A stretch of DNA of 64,000 nt. Source: Chloroflexota bacterium. Lineage in GTDB: Bacteria; Chloroflexota; Dehalococcoidia; Lucifugimonadales; UBA3495. Position 1 is the stretch's first letter. Each line of letters starts with the position of its first letter. The DNA lies in NCBI GenBank assembly GCA_028874075.1, contig JAPPLU010000049.1, positions 122,412-186,411 on the forward strand, written 5' to 3'. The position numbers and the translations under genes are program-made. Shown piece by piece: positions 2,273 to 17,901 of this stretch. The notes under the pieces were generated by a model, which saw nothing but the letters and a program-made list of their open reading frames with translations, was not told the DNA's origin and did no database searches.

Positions 2273-3895
2273 CTACTTTACCCGCCTGGCGCTTAGCAGA
2301 ATCATGTCGCGAAGCTGCTCGTTAGTCAGGCCGAACTCGTTCTGCTCGTGCCGCAGATCGTCGCAAACATCGATGCGGAGGAGGAACGCGGAGTTCCTGG
2401 TGCTGTAGTGAACATAGGCGCCCTTGCGGGTCATCCAGCCAATCAGGCAGCGATCATTTTCGTACTTGTACTGGACTGCGCTGCTGCTGGCGGTGGGCCA
2501 GCCCCGCAGGAAGGGTGCGTCCCGCACTGCCACCACCTTCCTGGCGTTGCCGTCGGTAATGCTGTGGGCCACCCAGTTCTGGGATATCAGGTCCGCGGTT
2601 AGCAGGCTGGAGAAGTTCTGCGTCTTGTAATCGATAAGAATGGCCCCGTCTTTGCTTTGCAGCCTGTAGCCTGGCGGGCCACCCCAGAAGTTGCCGGGTA
2701 TGTCGAAGGAAAACTCAATATCCCCCCTGGAGAAGTTGTGGGCCAGCCATGGCACGGGCGTGGGCGGAGGTATTGGCGTGGCCGTAGGCGTGGGAGTTGG
2801 CAGCGGTGTGGCTGTGGGCGTCGGTAGTGGAGTACTCGTCGGTTCAGGTGCAGGAGTCAGGGTTGGATCGGGGTTAGCGGTCGGCTCCGACGTGGCCGTA
2901 GGCGTCGGGGCCACCGTTGGAGTCGGGGTGGGATCCGGAGTCGAGGTTGGGGTTGGGGTTGACGTTGGCTCCGGGACGATGGTCGGCAGCGCCGCCAGCT
3001 GGCCGGATGCTGGCGGGACGCAGTTTACCATCCGGTTCGGCAACGGGTAAGGGACTTCGTTGACGGGAATGGCCAGACCCACGCCCTCAATGGCGACACC
3101 CCCGGCCTGGCGCAATACCTGGGTGTTGATACCCACGACGCAGCCCAGAGCGTTTACCAATGGACCGCCGCTATTGCCCGGATTCAGGGGCGTATCCGTC
3201 TGAAGGTAGCCGTTGACCCTGCCCGATAGAAGCCCGCCGGTAATGGTCGGTTCCAGCCCAAGAATTTCCGCCAGGGGATATCCAATTGCATAGGCCGCTT
3301 CGCCCAGCCGCACCTGGTCGGAGTCGCCAACTGCCAGGGCCGTCAGAGGAGGGGCATCGACCACTTCCAGGTATGCCAGGTCAATCCGGCTGTCCCGGTC
3401 CAGGACATTGGCGCGATACCGGTCGCCGCCGGTCAGATCGACCCACACCTGGTTGTAATTCCCCACCACATGGGCGTTGGTGATGACGAACCCCTGGTTG
3501 TCCGCCACGAATCCAGACCCCGTAGCGGAAGGGGTGGTGACCAGCACAACCCCCCGGCTGACGGCGCTGTAAATATCCGATGGTTGAGGCAGGGCAGTGC
3601 CGCCGGCAACGGGAGCCGCAAGGGCGGGAGTGGGTTCCGGCAGCACGGGAGCCGCCGGCGCGGGGTTATTGCTCACCTGCGAAGCTGGAACCAGGGGCTG
3701 GGCGCCGCTGCCCGAGTCGGAAGAAAAAGCGAAGAGAAACAGGAGGTAGCCTCCGATCGCCAACACTGCTCCCACACCCCAGAAACGCTTCTGGCCAACC
3801 ATGTTAATGAGGTTTCTCTGCCGGACCCGTTCCTTACAATAGGCACAAAAGAGCCACCAGTCAGGAATTAGTTCATTGCAGTTGGGACATTTCAT
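2273..3895 (-). CDS. Membrane-anchored trypsin-like (S1C/HtrA-type) serine protease with N-terminal zinc ribbon, Pro/Thr linker and unassigned C-terminal domain
   Basis: Zinc ribbon [22 protein letters not shown] segment [19 protein letters not shown]. Protease motifs ITNAHVV (His), RIDLAYLEV (Asp) and GNSGGPLV (Ser). About 80 aa of PTPTPT-type linker. The last ~150 aa have no motif I recognise. Start set at ATG 3895; the track ORF begins at a TTG at 3994. Confidence 0.8.
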
Positions 3896-4091
3896 AGGCA
3901 AGACGCCTGACCTTCGTGAGATTGTCCGGAACAGCGACGTACTCGCGTTACCAGCATGGAAATGGGTCAAGGACAGCTTCTTGTCCCACGGCAAAGAAAC
4001 CGGAGAAAGCTATCGACGGGCAACGTCCATCTATCTATGGCTTACGGATTAATACGCCCAATAATCCCCCTTTAAGCTGGCTCGCATTTCC

Positions 4092-5525
4092 CTATGGCGG
4101 ACCACATCGCGGACAACACTGGAAGTTATCAGGAATTTCTGTCCCGCAACTTCGACAGGGTGAGGTTTTCTGGGAGAGATAGGCCAGGCAATTCGGATTT
4201 TGGCACACAATCTTTGTGTCCTGGTTATCCATCCCGCATTGCGGGCAACTGACCAGCCGCACGATGGGCTGGGCTTGCCGGTTACGAGTTGCCTCCGGGG
4301 TCTGCTGCCGGTTCTGCCGGTTGCGTGGACCCATCGGAGTTTGCTGGCGAGATTGCGTGTGGTGCGGTGCGGACGGATTCTGCTGTTGTTGCGCAGCCTG
4401 ATTCGAGCTGGAATTTCCAGTGTTGTTGCCCGCGCCGGAGATGGTAGTGCTGTAGTTAACCGTGGCCTGCTGGCCCAGGTTATTTCCTCCCTTGCTTGCC
4501 AGGTGATGGCCCAGGTTCAGAACCTCGGCGGCGGAGTAACTTCTGCCACCGGCAAAGGTGTGTCCGAAGTAATTCATCCAATTGGGGGAGAGCTGTTCCC
4601 ACCGTTCTTTAGACCTGGCGGGGGTTGACAGGGTAGGGTGGTGGAAGGGGAATTCACGATTGGCAATCCTCTCCTTGTATGTCTGGGAGCCGCCGATATT
4701 ATCCAGGGGGTGAACACCGTTCATCAAGAGCTTGAACAGGATAACAGCAATGGCAAAATTGTCGTCTTCAGCTAAACGGTCAAAACAGAGAAACTCCTTC
4801 TTGTGCCGCCCCCTGGGTTTCCCCGATGGACACCGGTCCTGGTTGCAGTCATCTGCAGTGAGACCAATAACACGGGGACTGAGAAAGTCCGGCTTGCCCA
4901 CGGGACTGCGGTGAACGGTCCGGTTCTTCTTGTCCTGTACCTGGAATGAATCGGAGTCCACGAAGGCCACCCGACCCTCGTAATTGACGAGAATGTTGCT
5001 TTCGTTAACGTCGCCAATTACGTAACCCAGCCTGTGGATATTGCCGAGTATGGTCAGGATGTTGCGGACTACTACGTTGAGCAGGGTCTCCAGGTCTTCC
5101 CCATCCGTGGGAACTCTCAGGTCCTGCCGCGCCAGTGTGGCGTTCAGTTCCCTTCTTTTGGCGGGGTTGTAATAGTTCAAGATATCTTTGTAGAGGCCCA
5201 TGTCGATTTTCGGCATGGTGAAGCCTGCCATCAGCCCGTCAAAGGGCCCACCGTAGTACCAGAGGATTTCTTCAGGCCACGCCAGGGCCACATTGTTGTC
5301 CGCATCTCTCGTAGGAGGCGCGTTTTCGATCATGGCGGCAAGCTTCTGTTCCTTCCGTTTCCACAGCGCCGTTGGCGTGGGTCCAGTGGGTATATCCTTG
5401 GTGTATATCTTGGCTACCAAATCCGGTTGGTCGTTGACCGCATAAACGACGGCTTCCCCGCCAGAACCCAGGGGACTGTCGGGGGTCTGAATGATCCGCT
5501 TACTGCTGGTACGGCAGGTTGGCAT
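4092..5525 (-). CDS. Ser/Thr protein-kinase-like protein with Q/N-rich spacer and C-terminal double zinc ribbon
   Basis: GSGGEAVVY (Gly loop), VAKIY (Lys), HRLGYVIGDVNESNILV (catalytic loop) and FVDSDSF (DFG equivalent). C-terminal CPQCG..CQNPNC..CRSCG..CPRCG. ATG at 5525, 13 nt after the PP2C stop. Confidence 0.8.
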   Translation of the reverse strand: MPTCRTSSKRIIQTPDSPLGSGGEAVVYAVNDQPDLVAKIYTKDIPTGPTPTALWKRKEQKLAAMIENAPPTRDADNNVALAWPEEILWYYGGPFDGLMAGFTMPKIDMGLYKDILNYYNPAKRRELNATLARQDLRVPTDGEDLETLLNVVVRNILTILGNIHRLGYVIGDVNESNILVNYEGRVAFVDSDSFQVQDKKNRTVHRSPVGKPDFLSPRVIGLTADDCNQDRCPSGKPRGRHKKEFLCFDRLAEDDNFAIAVILFKLLMNGVHPLDNIGGSQTYKERIANREFPFHHPTLSTPARSKERWEQLSPNWMNYFGHTFAGGRSYSAAEVLNLGHHLASKGGNNLGQQATVNYSTTISGAGNNTGNSSSNQAAQQQQNPSAPHHTQSRQQTPMGPRNRQNRQQTPEATRNRQAQPIVRLVSCPQCGMDNQDTKIVCQNPNCLAYLSQKTSPCRSCGTEIPDNFQCCPRCGPP

Positions 5526-5538
5526 CAATTGCCCCCGT

Positions 5539-6303
5539 TTACCTTCTGATGGTCAATAGCAAAGTGATGTCGTCGTCGCTCTTGGACGTAACCCGAGACG
5601 AGCTGAGCAGCCCGGATAGTTCGGCCTCCACCCGTAGCGGGTCCGATTGACCCTCCAGCCACTGGAAGACGTTATTGAAGAAACCAAAAAAGGGCTGTTG
5701 GGTAGCGCGCTCAATCACCAGGTTCTCCAAACCGTCGGAGAACATAGCCAGGTATCTCGGCTGAGCCTCAACCACCTTCACCTCCATCTGTTCCAACCAT
5801 TCCCTCGAGGTAATAAAGGTGGTCTGGTTGACGTACTCGCCGTGCTGGGGCGCGGTGAGGCAATCGAATCCTCCCCGATCGTTGGAAATGACCATACCGC
5901 CATCTCCCACCTGGGCGGCCCCCAGGAGGGTATCCGTCTGGATGGACAGCAGCAGGGTATTGGCGTAGGACCGCAGAGGCTCGCCAGACTGGCGGGACAA
6001 TTCCTCCAGGGACTGCCGGACGCCGTAGGCCGATTCCCTGAGGACTTTTTCCAGATCGGCAGCTGTTGGGGGCTTAGCCAGGTCCAGCATGCGCCAGGCG
6101 GCAGCGCTGGTGGCCCGGGTGGTAGTTACCGTGGCGCCCAGGGCCGCGTTTCGGGCCGAACCGGCGCCGTCGGACACTACCGCAATGGCGAAGTCTGCCT
6201 CTACCCGGTGAAACGCCCGATCCTGCCGCTCGACGCCCCGCCGCAGGTGACGGGCACCGGCCACGGAAGCGCTGTAAGCCCATATTCCACTGCGATTGAC
6301 CAC
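5539..6303 (-). CDS. PP2C-family protein phosphatase
   Basis: Metal-binding Asp motifs VVSDGAGS and MFSDGL. GTG at 6303 shares its G with the vWA stop codon (TAGTG) and has GAGG upstream. An alternative GTG at 6393 would overlap the vWA gene by 91 nt. Confidence 0.75.
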   Translation of the reverse strand: MVNRSGIWAYSASVAGARHLRRGVERQDRAFHRVEADFAIAVVSDGAGSARNAALGATVTTTRATSAAAWRMLDLAKPPTAADLEKVLRESAYGVRQSLEELSRQSGEPLRSYANTLLLSIQTDTLLGAAQVGDGGMVISNDRGGFDCLTAPQHGEYVNQTTFITSREWLEQMEVKVVEAQPRYLAMFSDGLENLVIERATQQPFFGFFNNVFQWLEGQSDPLRVEAELSGLLSSSRVTSKSDDDITLLLTIRR

Positions 6304-7013
6304 TAGACCTCGGCCCAGCCTGCGGGGCTGGACAAGGATACGGCGTCGCTGGGTTGCGACTGAGAAACCGAAGACATGGAGGCGGACAGCCACTGGAACA
6401 TTTCCCTAAAGTTCAGCCCCTGCAACTTCAGGGCTTGCCGGCTGCCTATGCTGTCCAGTTCAGTTAAGTCAGCACCTTCGACGCCGACGGTGAAGAAGGC
6501 AAGCTGCCGGTCGTTCTCGGCCTGCTTGACGCGGGCCTTGGCATTTTCCCAATCGGTGGCTGTGTCATGCTCCGGGTAGCCGTCGCAGATCAACCAAACC
6601 CAGGGCCGGTAGTAAGTGATGCCGTTGTCCCGATACGTTTGCTTCCTTTGTTCAACCAAGTCCAGGGCCATTTCAATTGCACCGGAAATCCTCGTTCCGC
6701 CGCTCACCTCCAGCATGGGCGGGTCGAAGCGGTCCACGGTGGTAAAGTCGTGGATCACCGATGCCTCGTGGTTAAAGGCTATAACTCCTATTTCCGTACG
6801 CAGCGATGCCAGGGTGTCATCTTCGATGCAGGACTTGAAGAACTTCAGGCCGTCGTTCAGTTGCCGGATGGGTATCTCCCCATTTCTTTCGAAACCCATG
6901 GAATTCGACACATCCAGCACCAGAAGGCAGGCGCAGCGAGGTTCCGGGTTATCCGCGAAGATCACCGAGTCTTCCAAGCTGGGAGACTGCGAAAGGTCGT
7001 TCTGTCCTACCAT
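6303..7013 (-). CDS. von Willebrand factor A (vWA) domain protein, TerY-like
   Basis: MIDAS motif LDVSNSM (DxSxS) after NPEPRCACLLV; also GGTRISGAIEMA and WLICDGYP. ATG 7013 is preceded by GGAGGA. Confidence 0.8.
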   Translation of the reverse strand: MVGQNDLSQSPSLEDSVIFADNPEPRCACLLVLDVSNSMGFERNGEIPIRQLNDGLKFFKSCIEDDTLASLRTEIGVIAFNHEASVIHDFTTVDRFDPPMLEVSGGTRISGAIEMALDLVEQRKQTYRDNGITYYRPWVWLICDGYPEHDTATDWENAKARVKQAENDRQLAFFTVGVEGADLTELDSIGSRQALKLQGLNFREMFQWLSASMSSVSQSQPSDAVSLSSPAGWAEV

Positions 7014-7070
7014 CTACTTTCCTCCATTTGTCGTTCGGGTCGGCCGACTGTTCACTGCCTTGCCATCCGA

Positions 7071-7099
7071 TATATAGGTTACCTCCTCCACCCTGTCAA
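7071..7099 (-). promoter_or_regulatory. Sigma70-like promoter for the vWA-PP2C-kinase operon
   Basis: Read on the minus strand: TTGACA (7099-7094), 17-nt spacer, TATATA (7076-7071), about 58 nt upstream of the vWA ATG. Confidence 0.55.
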
Positions 7100-7178
7100 C
7101 CAAAATTCTGAAAATCCCTATTTGCTTATTTCACCTTTTGTCGCTGACCACTTCTCGACTCCGGTTCCCTCACCTGCC

Positions 7179-7709
7179 CTATGGCCCGGAACGCTTCGGC
7201 CACCCGGATGGCCAGTACTTCAGGTAAAGGCCGAACAGCAGCAGGCCCAGATGAATTGCCACCAGGTGCAGCAGCCCTATCTGGGGTATGGGCACTCCGA
7301 ACAGGGCATTGGGCGGGCTGTCCATCATCGGATGGGACGCCACCCGCAGCGCCAGCAAGGGCAGGACAACTATTGCCAGGTGTGTCTTAACTGGGTTCCG
7401 CCCCCGCATTATCGCCAGAAATGCGGTGAAAGACAGCAGAATCGTCAGGGCCGGCGCAATTACAAACAGGAAAGCCCCCAGGGGATTCGCCTGGAACCAG
7501 GCCGCCAGGGAGTCGTTGAACAAGCTGTAGCCCAGCAACCGGCTTCCCGTCATAGAGCCCGTGGGCCCCACCGGCATCCAGGGCAGCAGGATAAATACCA
7601 GGGCCAAACCGGCCAGCGCAGACCTGACCTGGTCAACCCTGCTCTGGTTGGGCAGTGGACTATTAAAGGCTTCCAGCAAACTGGAGCCGATGCTCTTCAT
7701 CCGCTGCAC
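7179..7709 (-). CDS. Integral membrane protein (about 4 TM helices), unknown function
   Basis: 176-aa ORF with several hydrophobic stretches (LAGLALVFILLPW, AFLFVIAPALTILLSFTAFLAI, LAIVVLPLLAL, LLHLVAIHLGLLLFGLYL). GTG 7709 lies 8 nt after AGGAG and 11 nt after the upstream stop. Confidence 0.6.
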   Translation of the reverse strand: MQRMKSIGSSLLEAFNSPLPNQSRVDQVRSALAGLALVFILLPWMPVGPTGSMTGSRLLGYSLFNDSLAAWFQANPLGAFLFVIAPALTILLSFTAFLAIMRGRNPVKTHLAIVVLPLLALRVASHPMMDSPPNALFGVPIPQIGLLHLVAIHLGLLLFGLYLKYWPSGWPKRSGP

Positions 7710-9048: not shown

Positions 9049-10827
9049 CTATTGGGGAAAGAAGGTAATTGCCATGCTGGCTCGTATCATTTCCTCATCG
9101 GCGCTGGAGACGATGACCAGAGACCCGAGGCTTGACTCCAGCGCCTCAAAGTCCTCTTCCGTCATATCCATATCTTCGGCATCCAACTCCGCTACGATAC
9201 GCTGCAGGTCCAACCAGAAAAGTAACTGATGCTCTCCGGCCAGGGCCTCCACCGCTCGCTGGTATTCGGCAACCGAAGACAATGCATGCTCATCACCGTT
9301 CTGAGCTCCCACCACATTCTCCAGAGCCTCTTCCGTGGTGCCAAATACGAGGTATCCGTTGTGAAGAACGTATCCGGGAGTGTAATCCGTCTCGATTCCA
9401 AAGAAGTCCGGTCTGAAAATCTCCGCGTCGTTGTCGGCGCCCACATCCTCAGAGTCAATATCAATGGGGACTTCCTCGTGAAGGAAGTCGGAAAAGTCTT
9501 CCAGGCTATCCTCTAACCTTGATTCGGATTCCGGGAGGTAAGACAACATTGCCACGACATTGAGTGTCTCCTCCAAAGGGTCTTCCTCAATGCGGCCAGC
9601 ATCGAACTCTTCCACTGACATGACGAACTCTCCACCGAGGTATTCGATGAAGTCTTTCTCCAAGTCTACATCGGTGTAGGCCTCTACCAATTCAAGAAAT
9701 ATATCAAGCACATCGGCCATGTCAGGGTTTTCCCTAAATCGAGGAGGATTGTCGCTCTGCCACTCTACTTCCCGGTATAGCTCCACATAGATATCTTCAA
9801 CGTAGTAGGAGATTTCGTCACTGGATCCGTAATCTTCCAGTTGTTCCCTCCAGTTGTCCAGGTCCGTGTCGAATGATGCAGCTAGCAACCCCACCGTTTC
9901 AGCAGGTACCAGTTCCGCTGGGTTGTCCAGAACCTGAAGGTCGCTGGTAATGTTTATGGTGTTGGGTGCCAGGAATTCCACCACAATGCCCCTGTCAATC
10001 CACTGGGTCGTAACTGCGGCCCAGTCTGGAAAGTCAGAGGAATCGGATATCGCAGCAAAATCGTACGCTTCTTCTGAAATCAGGTCTGCATCATCAAGCA
10101 GGTCTAACAATTCCTCAATGTTCAGGAAGACTGAGGCGAAACGTCGGTCGGAATATTGTTGCCTGGCAGCCTGAAATTGTTCATCATCTGCAAGGGACCG
10201 CTCCGAACGGCCAGTGATCAAGTCCAGCATATCTTCCAGCGTTTCTTCGGGGTCGTCCGCAAACACGACCAGCAACACTTCCCTCGTTAGCGCGAACGCC
10301 AATCTCTCTCGTTCGTCAGTCCATATATCAATCCCGTCATCATCATCGTAGTCAAAGTCGAAGCCCGACTCGTCCTCAAGGTAGTCTGTCCATTCCTCTA
10401 TGAAGATCTGGGCCCTTTCGAAGTCGCGGACAGACACTGTCACTACGCCAACGGGCTTATCATTCTCTTCCAACAGACCGGCCGAGGCGTCGACGCCTAT
10501 CCATGTCTCCAGTTCTTCCTCGAAATCGAAGCCGGACTCGTCCTCAACATCGTCCTGCAGGTCCTCCAATCTTTCTTCCAGCTCTGGTAATTCATTAATC
10601 CTTTCAAACAGATCCATCATCTGGTCAAACTGACCGTCTTCGGGGTACAGGGTAAGCCACGCATAAGAAATAGTGTCTCGAGGGTAGTAACTGGCTGAAT
10701 GTTCGGGAGGGTCGAGGAAGAGACCAATGAAGGGATTAGGGCCAATGCCAAAATAGATCAGGGCGGCGAAGGCAACAATCAGGACGCCAACGGCGGCCAA
10801 AATAACGCCAGTTATTTTGAGAACCAT
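9049..10827 (-). CDS. Membrane-anchored, extremely acidic protein of unknown function (size and architecture possibly DUF3352-like)
   Basis: 592-aa ORF. N-terminal TM ITGVILAAVGVLIVAFAALIYFGI. The remainder is dominated by Asp/Glu runs (EDLQDDVEDESGFDFEEELE, FDFDYDDDDGIDIW). ATG 10827. Confidence 0.7.
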   Translation of the reverse strand: MVLKITGVILAAVGVLIVAFAALIYFGIGPNPFIGLFLDPPEHSASYYPRDTISYAWLTLYPEDGQFDQMMDLFERINELPELEERLEDLQDDVEDESGFDFEEELETWIGVDASAGLLEENDKPVGVVTVSVRDFERAQIFIEEWTDYLEDESGFDFDYDDDDGIDIWTDERERLAFALTREVLLVVFADDPEETLEDMLDLITGRSERSLADDEQFQAARQQYSDRRFASVFLNIEELLDLLDDADLISEEAYDFAAISDSSDFPDWAAVTTQWIDRGIVVEFLAPNTINITSDLQVLDNPAELVPAETVGLLAASFDTDLDNWREQLEDYGSSDEISYYVEDIYVELYREVEWQSDNPPRFRENPDMADVLDIFLELVEAYTDVDLEKDFIEYLGGEFVMSVEEFDAGRIEEDPLEETLNVVAMLSYLPESESRLEDSLEDFSDFLHEEVPIDIDSEDVGADNDAEIFRPDFFGIETDYTPGYVLHNGYLVFGTTEEALENVVGAQNGDEHALSSVAEYQRAVEALAGEHQLLFWLDLQRIVAELDAEDMDMTEEDFEALESSLGSLVIVSSADEEMIRASMAITFFPQ

Positions 10828-10921
10828 AGAGTAGACTCCGATTCAGGGAGGGGAAATCAATGGTGTAAGTTTGCTATTGCTCGACCATCTTCCTGCTTCA
10901 CCAGCCCGGATGGAAAGGGGG

Positions 10922-10966
10922 AAATCAAAATTGCACGTCGCTTCCGGTCTCCAGGAAACGACGTGC
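10922..10966 (-). terminator. Rho-independent terminator after the TPP-enzyme gene
   Basis: Stem GCACGTCG...CGACGTGC of 8 bp plus 4 inner bp (10933-10966). On the minus strand it is followed by AATTTTGATTT. Confidence 0.65.
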
Positions 10967-11037
10967 ATACACGATCTTCCTTCAAACCCCAACATCCCAG
11001 TTCTCTCGAAATGGGACGGGGCGAGGTTCCGTCCGAT

Positions 11038-12693
11038 CTATCTGCCCACCCAGTCCCCGTAAATCGGGTACTGGCTGCAGAGGAACTCGATGTAGGCCGG
11101 GCGGTTGGACTGGTTGACCTCCAGGGCGCGGCGCAGGGCCGGCTCCACCTCCGACGGTTCCGACACCCGCTCGGTGTGGTAGCCCAGCTCGCCAATTACC
11201 CGGGACATATCCACGTCGTCGGGACCCAGCACCGAGTGGGTGAAGGGGTCGTGGCCGGGACCCCAGAAGCCGGGTCCGTAGCCGGCGAAGCCGCCGTTGC
11301 TGATGTGGGCCACGGTAACGCCCAGATTCTGCCGCAGGGCCACTTCCAGGTTGCCCAGCATGTAGCCCAGACCCGCCTCGCCGGTAACCGTTACCGCCGG
11401 ACGGTTGGGGTCGGCCAGCCGCGCCGCCACCGAACCTGCCCAGCCGAAGCCCAGGGTGGAGACATTGCCCCAGCCCAGGAAGCCCCGGGGTACCAGGGTG
11501 TCGTACACGGTGCTCAGCTGGTCCCGGGTGTTGCCCGACTCGTGGGTTACAAAGGAGTTGTAGGGGTCCAGCACCTCCATCAACCCGGCGTACACCCGGT
11601 AGGGGTTGATGGGCTTGTCGCTGGACGCCATGGCCTCCAGGTACTGGGCCATGCCGGCATCCCGCTCGGTTTTCACCTCCAGGGCCACGTCCTCCCGGGA
11701 GCGGGCCGACTTCACCGGACGGTCGGCGAGCTCTTCGTTCAACGCCTGCAGGGAGTAGCGGGCGTCGCCAATGACCACGCCAGCCGTGTTGTAGACCTTG
11801 TTGACGTGCAGGTCGTCCACGTCGCAGTGGACGATAGTCTTGCTGCCGGCGTTGGGGATTCGGTGGCTGAACCGGCCGGGGGACAGGCTGGTGCCCACGG
11901 CGAACACCATGTCGCAGTTCTCCAGGTAGTTGTTGACCTGGCCGCCCCGCACGCCCACGAACAGGGGATGGTTCTCGGGGAAGGCGCCCTTGGCCTTAAG
12001 GGTGGTGATCACCGGGGCATTGGCCATCTCGGCGAAGGCTACCAGTTCCTCCGCAGCCTCGGCGTAAATCACACCCTCCCCGGCGTAGATAATGGGCCGC
12101 TGGGCGCCGGTGAGCAGGTCAATGGCGTGGGCCACGTCCTCCCGCACGGGGCCGTGCTTCCAGCCCTTAACCGGCTGGTAGGGGTCGGCCGTCTCGTCGT
12201 AGGTTCCGGTGGGGTCGGGAACGGCCAGTACCACCGGGCCAGGGCGACCGCTCCGCAGCATGGTGAAGGCCCGGCGCATGAACTCGGGGACCCGCTCGGG
12301 CCGGTCGATGAAGCCGTACCACTTGGACACGGTGGACAGGGCGTTGAAGACGTCGTACTGGCTGTTGTTGGTGGAGCCGGCCGGAACCCCGTCGGTGATG
12401 CACAGCACCGGCGAACCGTCCTCGAAGGCCTGGGCCATACCGGCGTAGGCGTACTGGGTACCGGCGGCGTTGACGCCGCCCTGGAAGGTGCAGACGCCGA
12501 TCTGGCGACCGGCGGTAATGCGAGAGAAGGCGTCGGCCACGGCCACGGCGTAGCGGTCGTCGCGCATCATCACCATGGGGATGCCCTCGCGGCCCAGGGC
12601 ATTGTTGACCCGGCAGACGGGGAAGGTGGAAACCCATTCAACCCCTTCCTGTTTCAGAATACGGGCTATGCCGGTGGCGGCGTCGATAGTCAT
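11038..12693 (-). CDS. Thiamine-diphosphate-dependent enzyme (acetolactate synthase / sulfoacetaldehyde acetyltransferase-like family)
   Basis: Three-domain TPP-enzyme layout. N-terminal GIARILKQEGVEWVSTFPV. C-terminal TPP-binding region TGEAGLGYMLGNLEVALRQNLGVTVAHISNGGF. ATG 12693 is preceded by GGAAGGGAG; the track ORF extends to 12780. Confidence 0.8.
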   Translation of the reverse strand: MTIDAATGIARILKQEGVEWVSTFPVCRVNNALGREGIPMVMMRDDRYAVAVADAFSRITAGRQIGVCTFQGGVNAAGTQYAYAGMAQAFEDGSPVLCITDGVPAGSTNNSQYDVFNALSTVSKWYGFIDRPERVPEFMRRAFTMLRSGRPGPVVLAVPDPTGTYDETADPYQPVKGWKHGPVREDVAHAIDLLTGAQRPIIYAGEGVIYAEAAEELVAFAEMANAPVITTLKAKGAFPENHPLFVGVRGGQVNNYLENCDMVFAVGTSLSPGRFSHRIPNAGSKTIVHCDVDDLHVNKVYNTAGVVIGDARYSLQALNEELADRPVKSARSREDVALEVKTERDAGMAQYLEAMASSDKPINPYRVYAGLMEVLDPYNSFVTHESGNTRDQLSTVYDTLVPRGFLGWGNVSTLGFGWAGSVAARLADPNRPAVTVTGEAGLGYMLGNLEVALRQNLGVTVAHISNGGFAGYGPGFWGPGHDPFTHSVLGPDDVDMSRVIGELGYHTERVSEPSEVEPALRRALEVNQSNRPAYIEFLCSQYPIYGDWVGR

Positions 12694-14814: not shown

Positions 14815-15747
14815 CTAACTCGAAGGCACCCTAATTGTAGTCTTGTGGATGATTGGCTCAGTTATAGCCGGCACAGTCCCAGTCGCTGGGAGGCCGCTGG
14901 TCAAGGGTTGATCCTGCGCTACTGATTGTAAGGTGATTGTAGTCCACCCCACATGGGCGGCAAGTTGGTCCTCGCTAAGCACCATCGAGGCTTTCACTCC
15001 GTATTGCGCATCTTCTTCTATCTTTGAATACACGGAGGCAACACGACTCTTGAGAGAACCTCCCGTCGCAAGCGAATTTGCAAAGAGATTCTGCAGATAG
15101 ATACCAACCGTCAGAACAAAGATATTCAGGTACACATCTCTGAAACGCTCATTGATCTGTTGCCTAATGGTATCGTTCCGACGATCCGAGTGCGCCCCCT
15201 GTGTATTGGCGACTTCCGACAGAATTGCTTTCATGTCGTGTCGGTTTCGGTTTATTTGAAGGACGGGCTGCTTCAGCCAACGATCCAATCTGAGGGGAAT
15301 CAGCCTCTCATCGAATGGGCTTTCTGAAACCCACAGGCCGCGACCTTTTTCGAACCGTAGGGCATAAAGGGGATACACGGCTGTTTCGTATTTTACTGGA
15401 GACATATCGATAACCGCTTGCTGCCCCGCCATTGGCTCGTCCAGTTTTGTTATCGTTATCGTGCCATCTCGCATTACAATCACCTGTTCGTAAAGATCAC
15501 CCCCGAGACGGTCAGGACGCATCAGCTTGTGGAGCATCGGTCTGCGTACGCATCTACGCAGACCGTCGCCCAATAACAATTTTCGTAGCTCGACAGATAT
15601 TAGCCTCGAAGCACCCACCAGGTTGTTGCGGTTGGCCTCAATCGCTCTGATTTGACCGAGAATATTGACCATCGTGTAGGCAAGATCTTCAAATTCACTG
15701 TCTGTACTATTTTCATTGGCTTCCCAGGTATACATAGCCGACTCCAT
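14815..15747 (-). CDS. Hypothetical protein, no recognisable family; low-GC gene
   Basis: Track ORF 14815..15783 starts at a TTG. ATG 15747 (MESAMYTW...) has TGGAG upstream. Spot GC counts of 43-55% per 60-nt line compare with about 63% in neighbouring genes. Confidence 0.5.
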   Translation of the reverse strand: MESAMYTWEANENSTDSEFEDLAYTMVNILGQIRAIEANRNNLVGASRLISVELRKLLLGDGLRRCVRRPMLHKLMRPDRLGGDLYEQVIVMRDGTITITKLDEPMAGQQAVIDMSPVKYETAVYPLYALRFEKGRGLWVSESPFDERLIPLRLDRWLKQPVLQINRNRHDMKAILSEVANTQGAHSDRRNDTIRQQINERFRDVYLNIFVLTVGIYLQNLFANSLATGGSLKSRVASVYSKIEEDAQYGVKASMVLSEDQLAAHVGWTTITLQSVAQDQPLTSGLPATGTVPAITEPIIHKTTIRVPSS

Positions 15748-15994
15748 GAGCAAACTCCATTGGCTGTCCCTGCCACGCTGCAAATGATGGAAAGTTGGAA
15801 AGATGGGGGAGCAATCGGCAAGGGGATGTATGAGGGGGTACGCGACAGGGCGACTGCATTCATGCTTTGCAAAGCTTCACCCAAGAGTTCGCATAAGGCC
15901 ATAGACGCCACGGATAGGTGGTACCCCAATCCTCACTTTTCGCCATCAGCGGGAAGGGGACTCTAGGTAACTCCGCTTATAATGCGCAACCCCC

Positions 15995-16324: not shown

Positions 16325-16491
16325 TGTTGGTCTCCTCAACTAAGGAAATTGCTGGTTCAGCCTGTTATTGAAGAAGTTAAGACATTACAGCATCTCTGAC
16401 AAACTCCGAACCGCGTCCAGGGAAGGCAAAGGTCTTGGCTGAAATAGAATTGACGCATGACCCTGCCACAAACTGGAGGTGTATAGATACG

Positions 16492-16521
16492 AAAAAATGG
16501 CCGGAGCGCCTGACGCCCCGG
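16492..16521 (-). terminator. Rho-independent terminator of the two-gene mini-operon
   Basis: Minus strand: the stop TAG is followed after 5 nt by the hairpin CCGGGGCGTCAGGCGCTCCGG, then CCATTTTTTCG. Confidence 0.6.
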
Positions 16522-16525
16522 TATT

Positions 16526-16735
16526 CTATTGGCTACTTATAGCCACGATGGCACCGATGGCGACTACCGAAATGGCCGCCACCGCTATGGCTGTCTTTAC
16601 AACATCAAACTTAGCCTTCTCAACGTCCTCTCTCGTTGCTGTATATTCCGCCCTGGTTTCCAACTCCTTTACTCTGTTCTTCATTTCGTTCACGTCCGAT
16701 TCCAGAGCATCTAGACGCTCTCCATCAGACGGCAT
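16526..16735 (-). CDS. Small tail-anchored membrane protein: N-terminal coiled coil plus C-terminal TM (XhlA/holin-like architecture)
   Basis: 69 aa. LDALESDVNEMKNRVKELETR is followed by the TM TAIAVAAISVVAIGAIVAI. The ATG has GGGAGGGGGAG upstream and overlaps the preceding gene by 11 nt. A terminator follows immediately. Confidence 0.5.
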   Translation of the reverse strand: MPSDGERLDALESDVNEMKNRVKELETRAEYTATREDVEKAKFDVVKTAIAVAAISVVAIGAIVAISSQ

Positions 16736-16997
16736 TGGTAGGCTCCCCCTCCCTTACTCGATTCATCCACTCAGAGAATTCAATCACACTCTTTGCCGTA
16801 GGGAAGCTTACATCTACAGACTTTACAAGGAAGTTGAAAGTGTCTTCAGGGAACTCCTTCTGCAGACTCTTTTGGAGATCGTTAATAGCCTCTTCCGGCG
16901 TGCTTCCCCTGCCCAGGAGTCCGAAACCCAGCGGGCTGGCATACCACACTTTCCCTGTTGCGCTGTTTCGTACGTTGACCGGCACCATTTGTTCCAT
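16725..16997 (-). CDS. HicB-like (UPF0150-type) small protein
   Basis: 90 aa. WYASPLGFGLLGRGSTPEEAINDLQKSL matches the Y-x-A-x-x-P-x-L-P-G-x-x-x-x-G-x-T-x-EEA pattern of HicB-family antitoxin N-domains. AGGAG is upstream of the ATG. Low-GC region. Confidence 0.5.
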   Translation of the reverse strand: MEQMVPVNVRNSATGKVWYASPLGFGLLGRGSTPEEAINDLQKSLQKEFPEDTFNFLVKSVDVSFPTAKSVIEFSEWMNRVREGEPTNAV

Positions 16998-17148
16998 AGC
17001 GCCTTTTACTCCTATGCTTTAGCGGATATGCTGGTTGTCTTGCGCTTATATTATCCCATGCCCGAACGAAAACCAATTTGGCGAGCAGTAGGCGCTTTGT
17101 CAACATGGCTGTCTGCCCTTCAGGGACGGGATCCCGATCAACTGCCCC

Positions 17149-17901
17149 CTACTCAAACCCCAGCTTGCGTTCGTTAAGGCTGACGTAGCGGCCGCCGCTG
17201 CCGATTACCAGGTGGTCCAGCAGGTCTATCCCCAGCAGCTTTCCGGCGGACACCAGGTCCCGGGTGATAGCCACGTCTTCCGGGCTGGGCGTCGGGTCTC
17301 CCGACGGGTGGTTATGGGCCACGATGATAGACGGGGCATTGTCGCGTACCGCCGGCCGGAACACCTCCGAAGGCCTTACGATGGAACTGTTGACGTTGCC
17401 CACGTACACCTCCACCGTGCTCAGCACCTGGTTCTTCGTGTTCAGGAGCAGAACTCGCAGGTGTTCCTGCTCCAGCGACGCCATTTCCGCCTGCAGCAGG
17501 TTCGCCACGTCCTGGGGCGAGTTAATGACCGCCCGGTCCTGGGGCGCCAGTGATATAAGACGCCGGCCCAGCTCCAGGGCGGCCATAAGCTGGCAAGCCT
17601 TGGCCTCGCTGAGGCCCCGCTCGGCGCACAGCTCGGCGAAGGTGCTGCGGCCGAGGCCATCCAGGCCGCCAAACCGGCTCAGCAAGCGGTTGGACATCGC
17701 CAGAACGTTCTCTCCCTGTATGCCCGTGCGCAGGAGGATGGCGATAAGCTCGGCGTTGCTGAGGTAGCGCGGGCCGTAGTCCCGCAGGCGTTCCCGGGGA
17801 CGTTCGCCCTGGGGCATGTCGCGGAGTTTGGGCTGGTAGGTGGCAGCCCACCCTGCTTCCAGGTGGGCATTTTCAATATCCGGCGTAACAGTAGCGACCA
17901 T
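17149..17901 (-). CDS. radC: RadC-family (UPF0758, JAB/MPN domain) protein
   Basis: HNHPSGDPTPSPEDV JAMM-like motif. N-terminal ERPRERL...NAELIAILLRTG. ATG 17901 is preceded by GGGAAGGA; the track ORF extends to 17967. Confidence 0.85.
   Translation of the reverse strand: MVATVTPDIENAHLEAGWAATYQPKLRDMPQGERPRERLRDYGPRYLSNAELIAILLRTGIQGENVLAMSNRLLSRFGGLDGLGRSTFAELCAERGLSEAKACQLMAALELGRRLISLAPQDRAVINSPQDVANLLQAEMASLEQEHLRVLLLNTKNQVLSTVEVYVGNVNSSIVRPSEVFRPAVRDNAPSIIVAHNHPSGDPTPSPEDVAITRDLVSAGKLLGIDLLDHLVIGSGGRYVSLNERKLGFE

Follow-up and report, generated by a model that had tools for sequence, protein, structure and literature searches.

In a survey of 2009, HicA and HicB, a toxin-antitoxin (TA) couple in which the antitoxin HicB is matched to an RNase with the fold of a dsRBD (a domain that binds double-stranded RNA), occurred strictly as unique pairs (PMC2701414). 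A different arrangement is seen with the type II toxins PanT-D11 and RmrT-D5 (Gordonia phage Kita), which possess a C-terminal transmembrane (TM) region and depolarise the membrane, and whose cytosolic antitoxins PanA and RmrA are predicted to contact the soluble region ahead of the toxin TM segment (PMC10440598). Outside TA systems, YqjD, ElaB and YgaM are C-tail-anchored, ribosome-inactivating proteins, and active YqjD-type proteins are inhibitors of growth or translation (10.1101/2024.08.16.608256). Here, we describe a two-gene module, A-B, on the minus strand of a 64,000-nucleotide stretch of DNA from a Chloroflexota bacterium of the class Dehalococcoidia (contig JAPPLU010000049.1, positions 122,412 to 186,411), referred to as the window throughout. 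Gene A encodes a small soluble protein with a predicted HicB-like fold and overlaps gene B, which encodes a coiled-coil protein with a C-terminal TM helix. We put the probability at roughly 45% that A-B is a self-contained, horizontally exchangeable cassette working like a type II TA pair.

The module shares with PanT-D11:PanA and RmrT-D5:RmrA a bicistronic, often overlapping layout, in which a small protein with a C-terminal TM region is encoded beside a cytosolic partner. The sequences are unrelated, however, the antitoxin folds are Panacea/DUF4065 and Rosmer as opposed to HicB-like in A, and those systems were validated by experiment, whereas A-B is described here from sequence and models. 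The GhoST type V TA system likewise has, in a single operon, the gene of a small soluble protein upstream of that of a small membrane toxin. Unlike the A-B products, GhoS is an RNase that has a ferredoxin-like fold and acts by cutting the toxin mRNA, and GhoT has two TM helices; homology is not to be expected. A C-tail anchor and a cytoplasmic coiled coil are common to B, to YqjD/ElaB/YgaM (DUF883) and to DUF1640/CCDC90 (PF07798) proteins, but in the latter two groups no HicB-fold partner is encoded by an overlapping gene. With hicAB, the module has in common that it is a small two-gene operon; it differs in that the partner of A is a membrane protein and that A comes first in the A-B order. 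A conserved operon of two small proteins is a trait of type II TA modules according to the criteria of PMC2701414, and A-B displays it, with 81-95 residues for A and 47-90 for B. In the literature, we came across no account of a tail-anchored membrane protein with a HicB-fold protein as its partner, and judging by sequence comparison neither A nor B belongs to a described family.

A HicB/UPF0150 signature region had been proposed for the 90-residue protein A in an earlier note on this DNA, made from the letters and their open reading frames (ORFs). At the level of sequence, no family model backed the assignment. Searches of A against Pfam, NCBIfam, PHROGs and PADLOC and a PDB profile search returned nothing meaningful, and the Pfam HicB models (PF15919 HicB_lk_antitox / PF15970; COG1598) matched neither the window protein (E<=1) nor 16 family members (E<=10). 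An hhalign comparison of A with one Pfam-verified HicB gave a probability of 1%, and a comparison of the A family with a 4-sequence HicB N-domain profile one of 57% (P=1e-4), which is marginal support. The signature motif of the note, G-x-[ST]-x-EEA-[IL], was aligned by hhalign with the β3-α1 region of HicB.

At the level of structure, the HicB likeness held up. The reference is the N-domain of HicB, a β-β-β-α-β fold that counts as a partially degraded RNase H-like one. An AlphaFold2 (AF2) model of A obtained with a broader alignment (predicted local distance difference test, pLDDT, 89.2; predicted template modelling score, pTM, 0.74) has the predicted topology β-β-β-α-β-α, with β1 at residues 2-11, β2 at 18-22, β3 at 29-31, α1 at 34-48, β4 at 53-62 and α2 at 71-82. 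Residues R10, N11, W18, S60, F65 and P66 of A are invariant. In a Foldseek search of the PDB, this model matched the HicB-type antitoxin 3k6q_A with a probability of 0.99 and a root-mean-square deviation (rmsd) of 1.3 Å over 45 columns, and the first model of A matched the HicB-type antitoxins 6u0i_B, 6hpb_B and 6g1n_C with probabilities of 0.85-0.89. HicB-type antitoxins were the sole high-probability PDB matches, the predicted β-β-β-α core of A superposing on the four HicB N-domains at rmsd values of 1.3-1.7 Å over ~45 residues. In BFVD, the 'HicB-like antitoxin' of Gordonia phage Skog and that of Mycobacterium phage Nibb matched A with probabilities of 0.91-0.96. RNase H-like folds and dsRBD folds made up the remaining Foldseek matches of A, and HicB is known to be akin to both (PMC2701414). 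The E-values of the Foldseek matches were weak (0.006-0.6 in all, 0.14-0.6 for the HicB-type antitoxins of the PDB), as the proteins are short and only about half of A (~45/90 residues) is aligned. A is, as modelled, a soluble protein with a HicB-like fold, whose membership of the HicB family is not demonstrable.

Residues 14-34 of A (window 16896-16958), TGKVWYASPLGFGLLGRGSTP, resemble the RCC1 repeat xGxVWxWGxNxYGQLGxG, so that the profile searches picked up proteins with RCC1 repeats, among them HERC2 from the PDB. From the sequences, this resemblance was judged to be local motif convergence rather than homology. The RCC1 and EF-hand 'relatives' of A (P0028, P0030-P0034) were discarded as repeat-amplified matches to the local motifs 'YGxLGxG' and 'SVDxxxDGxIDxxEF'. 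A second A-like copy at locus L011 (6049..5921), lying in frame within a luciferase-like monooxygenase gene, was set aside as a chance similarity.

In protein B, a heptad coiled coil is followed by a conserved segment and a C-terminal TM helix (Table 1). Lysines precede the helix, which leads to a predicted N-in, C-tail-anchored topology, and the helix itself is rich in Ala, Gly, Ser, Ile and Val. The motif EY-x-ATRED-[VL]-EKAK is conserved in the window-like clades. Between clades, the cytoplasmic part is conserved and the TM sequence poorly so. The family searches with B gave sub-threshold matches only (CCDC90-like/DUF1640, ssr2422, DUF2730, synaptobrevin and XhlA), all of which have the same architecture.

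The pairing of the two genes is strict. The A-B pair is present in all ~18 lineages with readable DNA downstream of A, each relative of A being followed by an ORF for a coiled coil plus C-terminal TM helix that overlaps or abuts it (junctions of -14, -11, -29, -4 or +2 nt), even where A is only 30-42% identical to the window protein. In the ~18 loci, hicA was never the partner of A; a single hicA was found, at L018, and it has its own hicB. Likewise, no ORF that resembles hicA in size or sequence lies beside A in the window, where the gap separating B from the cupin gene has room for ORFs of <=35 residues only. The genes around the pair vary from clade to clade, and their arrangements fall into at least five types. 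In the clade of the window, a gene for a thiamine pyrophosphate (TPP) enzyme, radC, A-B and a cupin gene follow one another. The second type comprises molybdopterin oxidoreductase, DUF4349, DUF6623, A-B and a chromate transporter, the third DUF1800/DUF1501 together with a luciferase-like monooxygenase, the fourth GntR/ferredoxin contexts and the fifth a BrnTA plus type ISP restriction context. Other TA genes are found <=6 kb away in five contexts (PIN/AF2212-like, HigB, MazE, BrnTA and hicAB). The named host records are metagenome-assembled genomes (MAGs) of Dehalococcoidia or Chloroflexota, several of them from sponge metagenomes. A scan of JGI metagenomes added one locus, L025, which is identical to L021, and the PADLOC defence models gave no meaningful match.

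The codon usage of the module is foreign to its surroundings. At third codon positions, A has a GC content (GC3) of 0.58 and B one of 0.54, compared with 0.79-0.85 in the five flanking genes examined (orf322 excepted). The module as a whole has 48-55% GC against 60-64% in the flanks in 9/9 lineages, including clades with an A protein only 35-58% identical. Such persistently low GC counts against an old, vertically inherited housekeeping gene, which would be expected to drift to the composition of the genome. The module lies 8-15 points under its flanks in GC even at 35% identity of A, and no compositional amelioration is seen. A further ORF of foreign composition is present in the window: at 14815-15783 (minus strand), between the cupin and the GMC-oxidoreductase genes, a 322-residue ORF has a GC content of 0.50 and a GC3 of 0.54. 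L005 and L009, which are syntenic relatives, do not have it at this place, none of Pfam, NCBIfam, PHROGs, PADLOC and the PDB gave a match, and it looks like a separate strain-specific insertion.

Replacement of the cassette at a single chromosomal site was observed between L017 and L018. The flanking genes of the two loci are 85-91% identical at the nucleotide and 91-98% at the protein level. The intervening segments, of 816 nt (L017 3806-4621) and 1554 nt (L018 3414-4967) and 48-51% GC, have no detectable nucleotide similarity; A-B is oppositely oriented in the two, and the A proteins are 39% identical. In L018, A-B shares the segment with a canonical hicA (4319-4507, PF07927, 50.9 bits) and hicB (4517-4903, PF15919, 56.9 bits). 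At another pair of loci, L014 and L003, identity amounts to 85% for the neighbour, to 39% for A and to 28% for B. The variable island of L017 and L018 sits between DUF1800 and a luciferase-like monooxygenase.

Gene B is repeatedly found disrupted where A is intact. In L006, an IS605-family TnpB element is inserted past codon 5 of B and A is intact; in L007 and L008, from two samples, A is likewise intact and codon 30 of B carries a GAA-to-TAA nonsense mutation. In L021 and L025, B is split by an insertion of ~600 nt (L021 5356-5949) and its TM helix is truncated as well. A stop codon immediately ahead of the TM helix is present in L011, and in L017 the gene is frameshifted. Four independent B variants (P0049, P0060, P0068 and P0071) have lost the frame or gained a stop at or just ahead of the TM helix, and three of these (P0060, P0068 and P0071) are TM-less. 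The protein sequence of A is identical in L005, L006 and L007, all 4-7 nucleotide differences being silent, and the same strains carry an intact (L005), an IS-disrupted (L006) and a nonsense-mutated (L007) B gene. Damaged A sequences numbered two, P0015 (locus L026) and P0023.

Candidate explanations for the clustering of the B lesions near the TM helix are selection against the anchor, the error-prone A-rich stretch GAAAAGGCAAAG, and chance. The insertion in L021 carries a 110-residue ORF (5557-5889) that weakly matches a winged-helix family (HTH_45, E=0.0023) and has a C-terminal hydrophobic helix of its own, a second small protein that looks tail-anchored. On the 7.9-Mb contig of L006, three IS605-family TnpB (OrfB_IS605/Cas12f-like) genes lie within 12 kb (3693-5021, 6277-7680 and 10329-11444), and a HigB/HTH_3 pair is located at the edge of the locus.

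The anatomy of the locus agrees with the earlier note, which had described an overlapping pair of 90- and 69-residue ORFs with an internal ribosome-binding site for the second, a coiled coil plus C-terminal TM helix in its product, a clean terminator behind it, no HicA, and a position in low-GC DNA beside radC. All these features were recovered, and their coordinates are collected in Table 1. The 11-nt overlap implies that translation of B would be coupled to that of A, and GGGAGG or GAGG counterparts of the Shine-Dalgarno run of B are present within the 3' end of A in L001, L002, L005, L009 and L013. The candidate promoter of A is part of an invariant block, GGGATAATATAA. Its -35 and -10 hexamers are invariant across six related upstream regions with a mean identity of 86%, and they agree with the sigma-70 consensus at 8/12 positions, which is under the scanner threshold of 9/12. 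No operator-like inverted repeat was found near this putative promoter, the sole palindrome (16704-16721) falling within the B coding region. The terminator hairpin starts 5 nt past the B stop, with GC at 7/9 pairs of the stem and a centroid energy of -15.9 kcal/mol, and its sequence is kept 3' of B in L006, L007 and L020. With its own promoter-like element, A, a coupled B and its own terminator, the module would thus form an autonomous unit. Directly upstream of A, beyond 151 nt of non-coding DNA, lies radC (PF04002, 1.3e-43), and the GC content of the module is 0.51, compared with 0.61 for the window. Rfam and tRNA scans of the window gave no match.

Table 1 Features of the A-B module and of protein B, in window coordinates.
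Feature	Position	Strand	Description
Gene A	16997..16725	minus	90 aa, ATG start; ORF call
Gene B	16735..16526	minus	69 aa, ATG start; ORF call
A/B overlap	16725..16735	minus	ATGCCGTCTGA; 11 nt shared
Shine-Dalgarno run for B	16755..16743	minus	AAGGGAGGGGGAG; inside the last codons of A, 7 nt ahead of the B ATG
Ribosome-binding site of A	17009..17013	minus	AGGAG; 11 nt ahead of the A ATG; invariant in 6 aligned relatives
Promoter-like element	17048..17076	minus	-35 TTGGTT 17076..17071, 17-nt spacer, -10 TAATAT 17053..17048
Intrinsic terminator	16521..16492	minus	9-bp hairpin 16521..16501, then CCA and UUUUUU 16497..16492
B N-terminus		minus	acidic MPSDxER; partly constrained by the overlap with the A C-terminus
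B heptad coiled coil	16723..16649	minus	residues 5-29; L8, L11, V15, M18, V22 and L25 at a/d positions
B conserved motif	16648..16610	minus	EYTATREDVEKAK; residues 30-42; from the alignment
B TM helix	16597..16535	minus	residues 47-67; KD19 = 2.63; 2 residues remain after the helix

On comparative grounds, both A and B are real genes. Relatives of A number 15 at 90% clustering (57-95 residues), and a profile search of 1.84 billion representatives yielded ~9 further, more divergent ones of 81-92 residues. For B, the 69-residue ORF of the window is conserved in 41 relatives of 47-90 residues that share its architecture. Between close relatives, the ratios of synonymous to non-synonymous codon differences in the sense frame are 21:7, 23:9 and 26:12 for A and 13:7 and 21:9 for B, and this excess of synonymous changes points to purifying selection on both.

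An antisense ORF of 232 residues (window 16479..17177, plus strand) covers the whole module and both flanks, and relatives show comparable open antisense stretches of 100-238 residues. It was rejected as a compositional shadow: when the codons of A and B are shuffled, equally open antisense frames result, the substitutions of the ORF are mostly non-synonymous (synonymous to non-synonymous 17:31, 22:37 and 16:33), and it is not kept across clades.

If A-B works like a type II TA pair, a single mRNA, begun at the promoter of the module and ended at its terminator, would encode A first, and as translation of B would be coupled to that of A, no B would be made without A. B would be inserted in the cytoplasmic membrane via its C-terminal helix and would self-associate through its cytoplasmic coiled coil. 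Left unrestrained, it may be harmful or growth-arresting, either by depolarising the membrane or through another membrane-proximal activity. A would bind the conserved cytoplasmic segment of B and hold it inactive, and B would be set free when A is lost or proteolysed. The binding of A to B, the toxicity of B and the trigger are what we infer rather than observe. In a more specific version, which we advance with greater reserve, a HicB-fold protein devoid of a DNA-binding domain would have swapped HicA for a C-tail-anchored coiled-coil effector, giving rise to a new TA family on a low-GC cassette of Dehalococcoidia that lands in variable islands beside classical TA pairs. The idea of a non-canonical TA or lysis-type module was already raised in the earlier note; its TA half, still putative, has been strengthened by the pairing, the foreign codons, the cassette replacement and the inactivation of B.

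A number of observations weigh against a type II TA pair on an exchangeable cassette. By sequence, A is not a HicB member in any of the Pfam, NCBIfam, PDB profile and hhalign comparisons. A C-terminal domain for binding DNA, of the ribbon-helix-helix (RHH) or helix-turn-helix (HTH) type, which is frequent in HicB but not universal, was not found in A: the model shows a single helix (residues 71-82) past β4, and Pfam gave no HTH or RHH match, so that no autoregulation in the style of a type II antitoxin is apparent. Conservation is higher in A than in B, the opposite of what is seen in most TA pairs. In B, a variable TM helix combined with a conserved cytoplasmic part fits an anchor better than a pore. 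The family appears, from the named records, to be confined to Chloroflexota/Dehalococcoidia, and no viral or plasmid copy was found in IMG/VR, the PLSDB plasmids or the INPHARED phages. In the clade of the window, the module is fully syntenic and about as conserved as its neighbours (identity of 87-92% versus 88-95%), which points to vertical inheritance there.

The disruption data carry caveats. The look-ups of loci started from intact proteins, be it A or B, and the excess of intact A with broken B is biased by retrieval through A. Several of the B frameshifts come from low-coverage long-read assemblies. In L026 (3001-3174), A has a 1-nt deletion in a T-run that turns GGAGTTTCC into GGAGTTCC, and B is intact. 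L026 is a long-read contig that is otherwise near-identical to L020, and the deletion probably reflects an error of sequencing; were it real, the allele would contradict the TA model.

Several of these observations would be expected if A and B formed a benign membrane-tethered complex, in which B serves as a C-tail-anchored scaffold or regulator and A is its soluble recruit or regulator, for example in stress or stationary phase, and no toxin is involved. We consider this less likely than the TA reading, of which it is the main rival. The TM helix of B varies as a plain anchor would while the cytoplasmic part is kept, A has no DNA-binding domain and remains under purifying selection where B is broken, and inheritance in the clade of the window is vertical and syntenic. 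Physiological roles are known for some coiled-coil proteins that are C-tail-anchored (10.1101/2024.08.16.608256), and B repeatedly returned matches to families made of a coiled coil and a TM helix. The CCDC90-like family (PF07798) was matched by five of ten B members, at best with E=0.0022, and a further match, with E=7.5e-4, was to the thylakoid protein family ssr2422. These matches remain sub-threshold, however, the window protein scoring 15.6 bits against a PF07798 cut-off of 33.5, and no anchor family was reached at threshold. DUF883 gave no match to the window protein (Pfam, E<=1) and is also absent from the list of the 25 families matched most often by the ten B members. A benign complex also leaves unexplained why GC3 is foreign in all lineages, how an inverted cassette came to replace another between near-identical flanks beside hicAB, and why B is lost repeatedly.

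Far less probable is a remnant of a phage lysis cassette, in which B would act as a holin-like protein or a holin accessory of the XhlA type, inhibited in the cytoplasm by an antiholin-like A. The resemblance to XhlA (PF10779, a PBSX/SPP1-type lysis accessory) that the earlier note had seen stands as far as architecture goes: the two proteins are of similar length, and in each a cytoplasmic coiled coil at the N-terminus is combined with one TM helix at the C-terminus. The match itself reaches only 10.7 bits (E=0.63), far under the cut-off of 34.7 bits, and is shared at E<=1 by 2/10 B members. The matches of B to the 'hemolysin' phrog_1193 (E=0.29) and to PHROGs 6136 and 5211 of unknown function (E=1e-3 to 5e-3) are weak as well. 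The fold of A is also found in small phage proteins, but no endolysin, holin partner or phage gene occurs in the ~18 neighbourhoods, and IMG/VR and INPHARED hold no relatives.

Similarly improbable is a reading in which A, an orphan of the HicB type, serves as antitoxin or regulator for a HicA encoded elsewhere and B is an unrelated small membrane protein that is merely co-transcribed, as the HicB-like fold of A and the canonical hicAB beside the module in L018 might suggest, since A is always overlap-paired with B and never with hicA (the hicAB of L018 being separate and complete), lacks HicB sequence signatures and a C-terminal DNA-binding domain, and would break with the strictly unique HicA-HicB pairs of the 2009 survey (PMC2701414).

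The module is a compact two-gene system from Dehalococcoidia known solely via metagenome assemblies, and the natural B knock-outs are ready-made genetic controls. If A-B proves to be a benign pair, it would represent a new complex of a C-tail-anchored protein and its partner. If it instead works like a type II TA pair, B would found a new family of small membrane effectors, and the partner swapping of TA systems would be extended to the HicB fold, for which HicA-HicB has so far been regarded as a closed pair.

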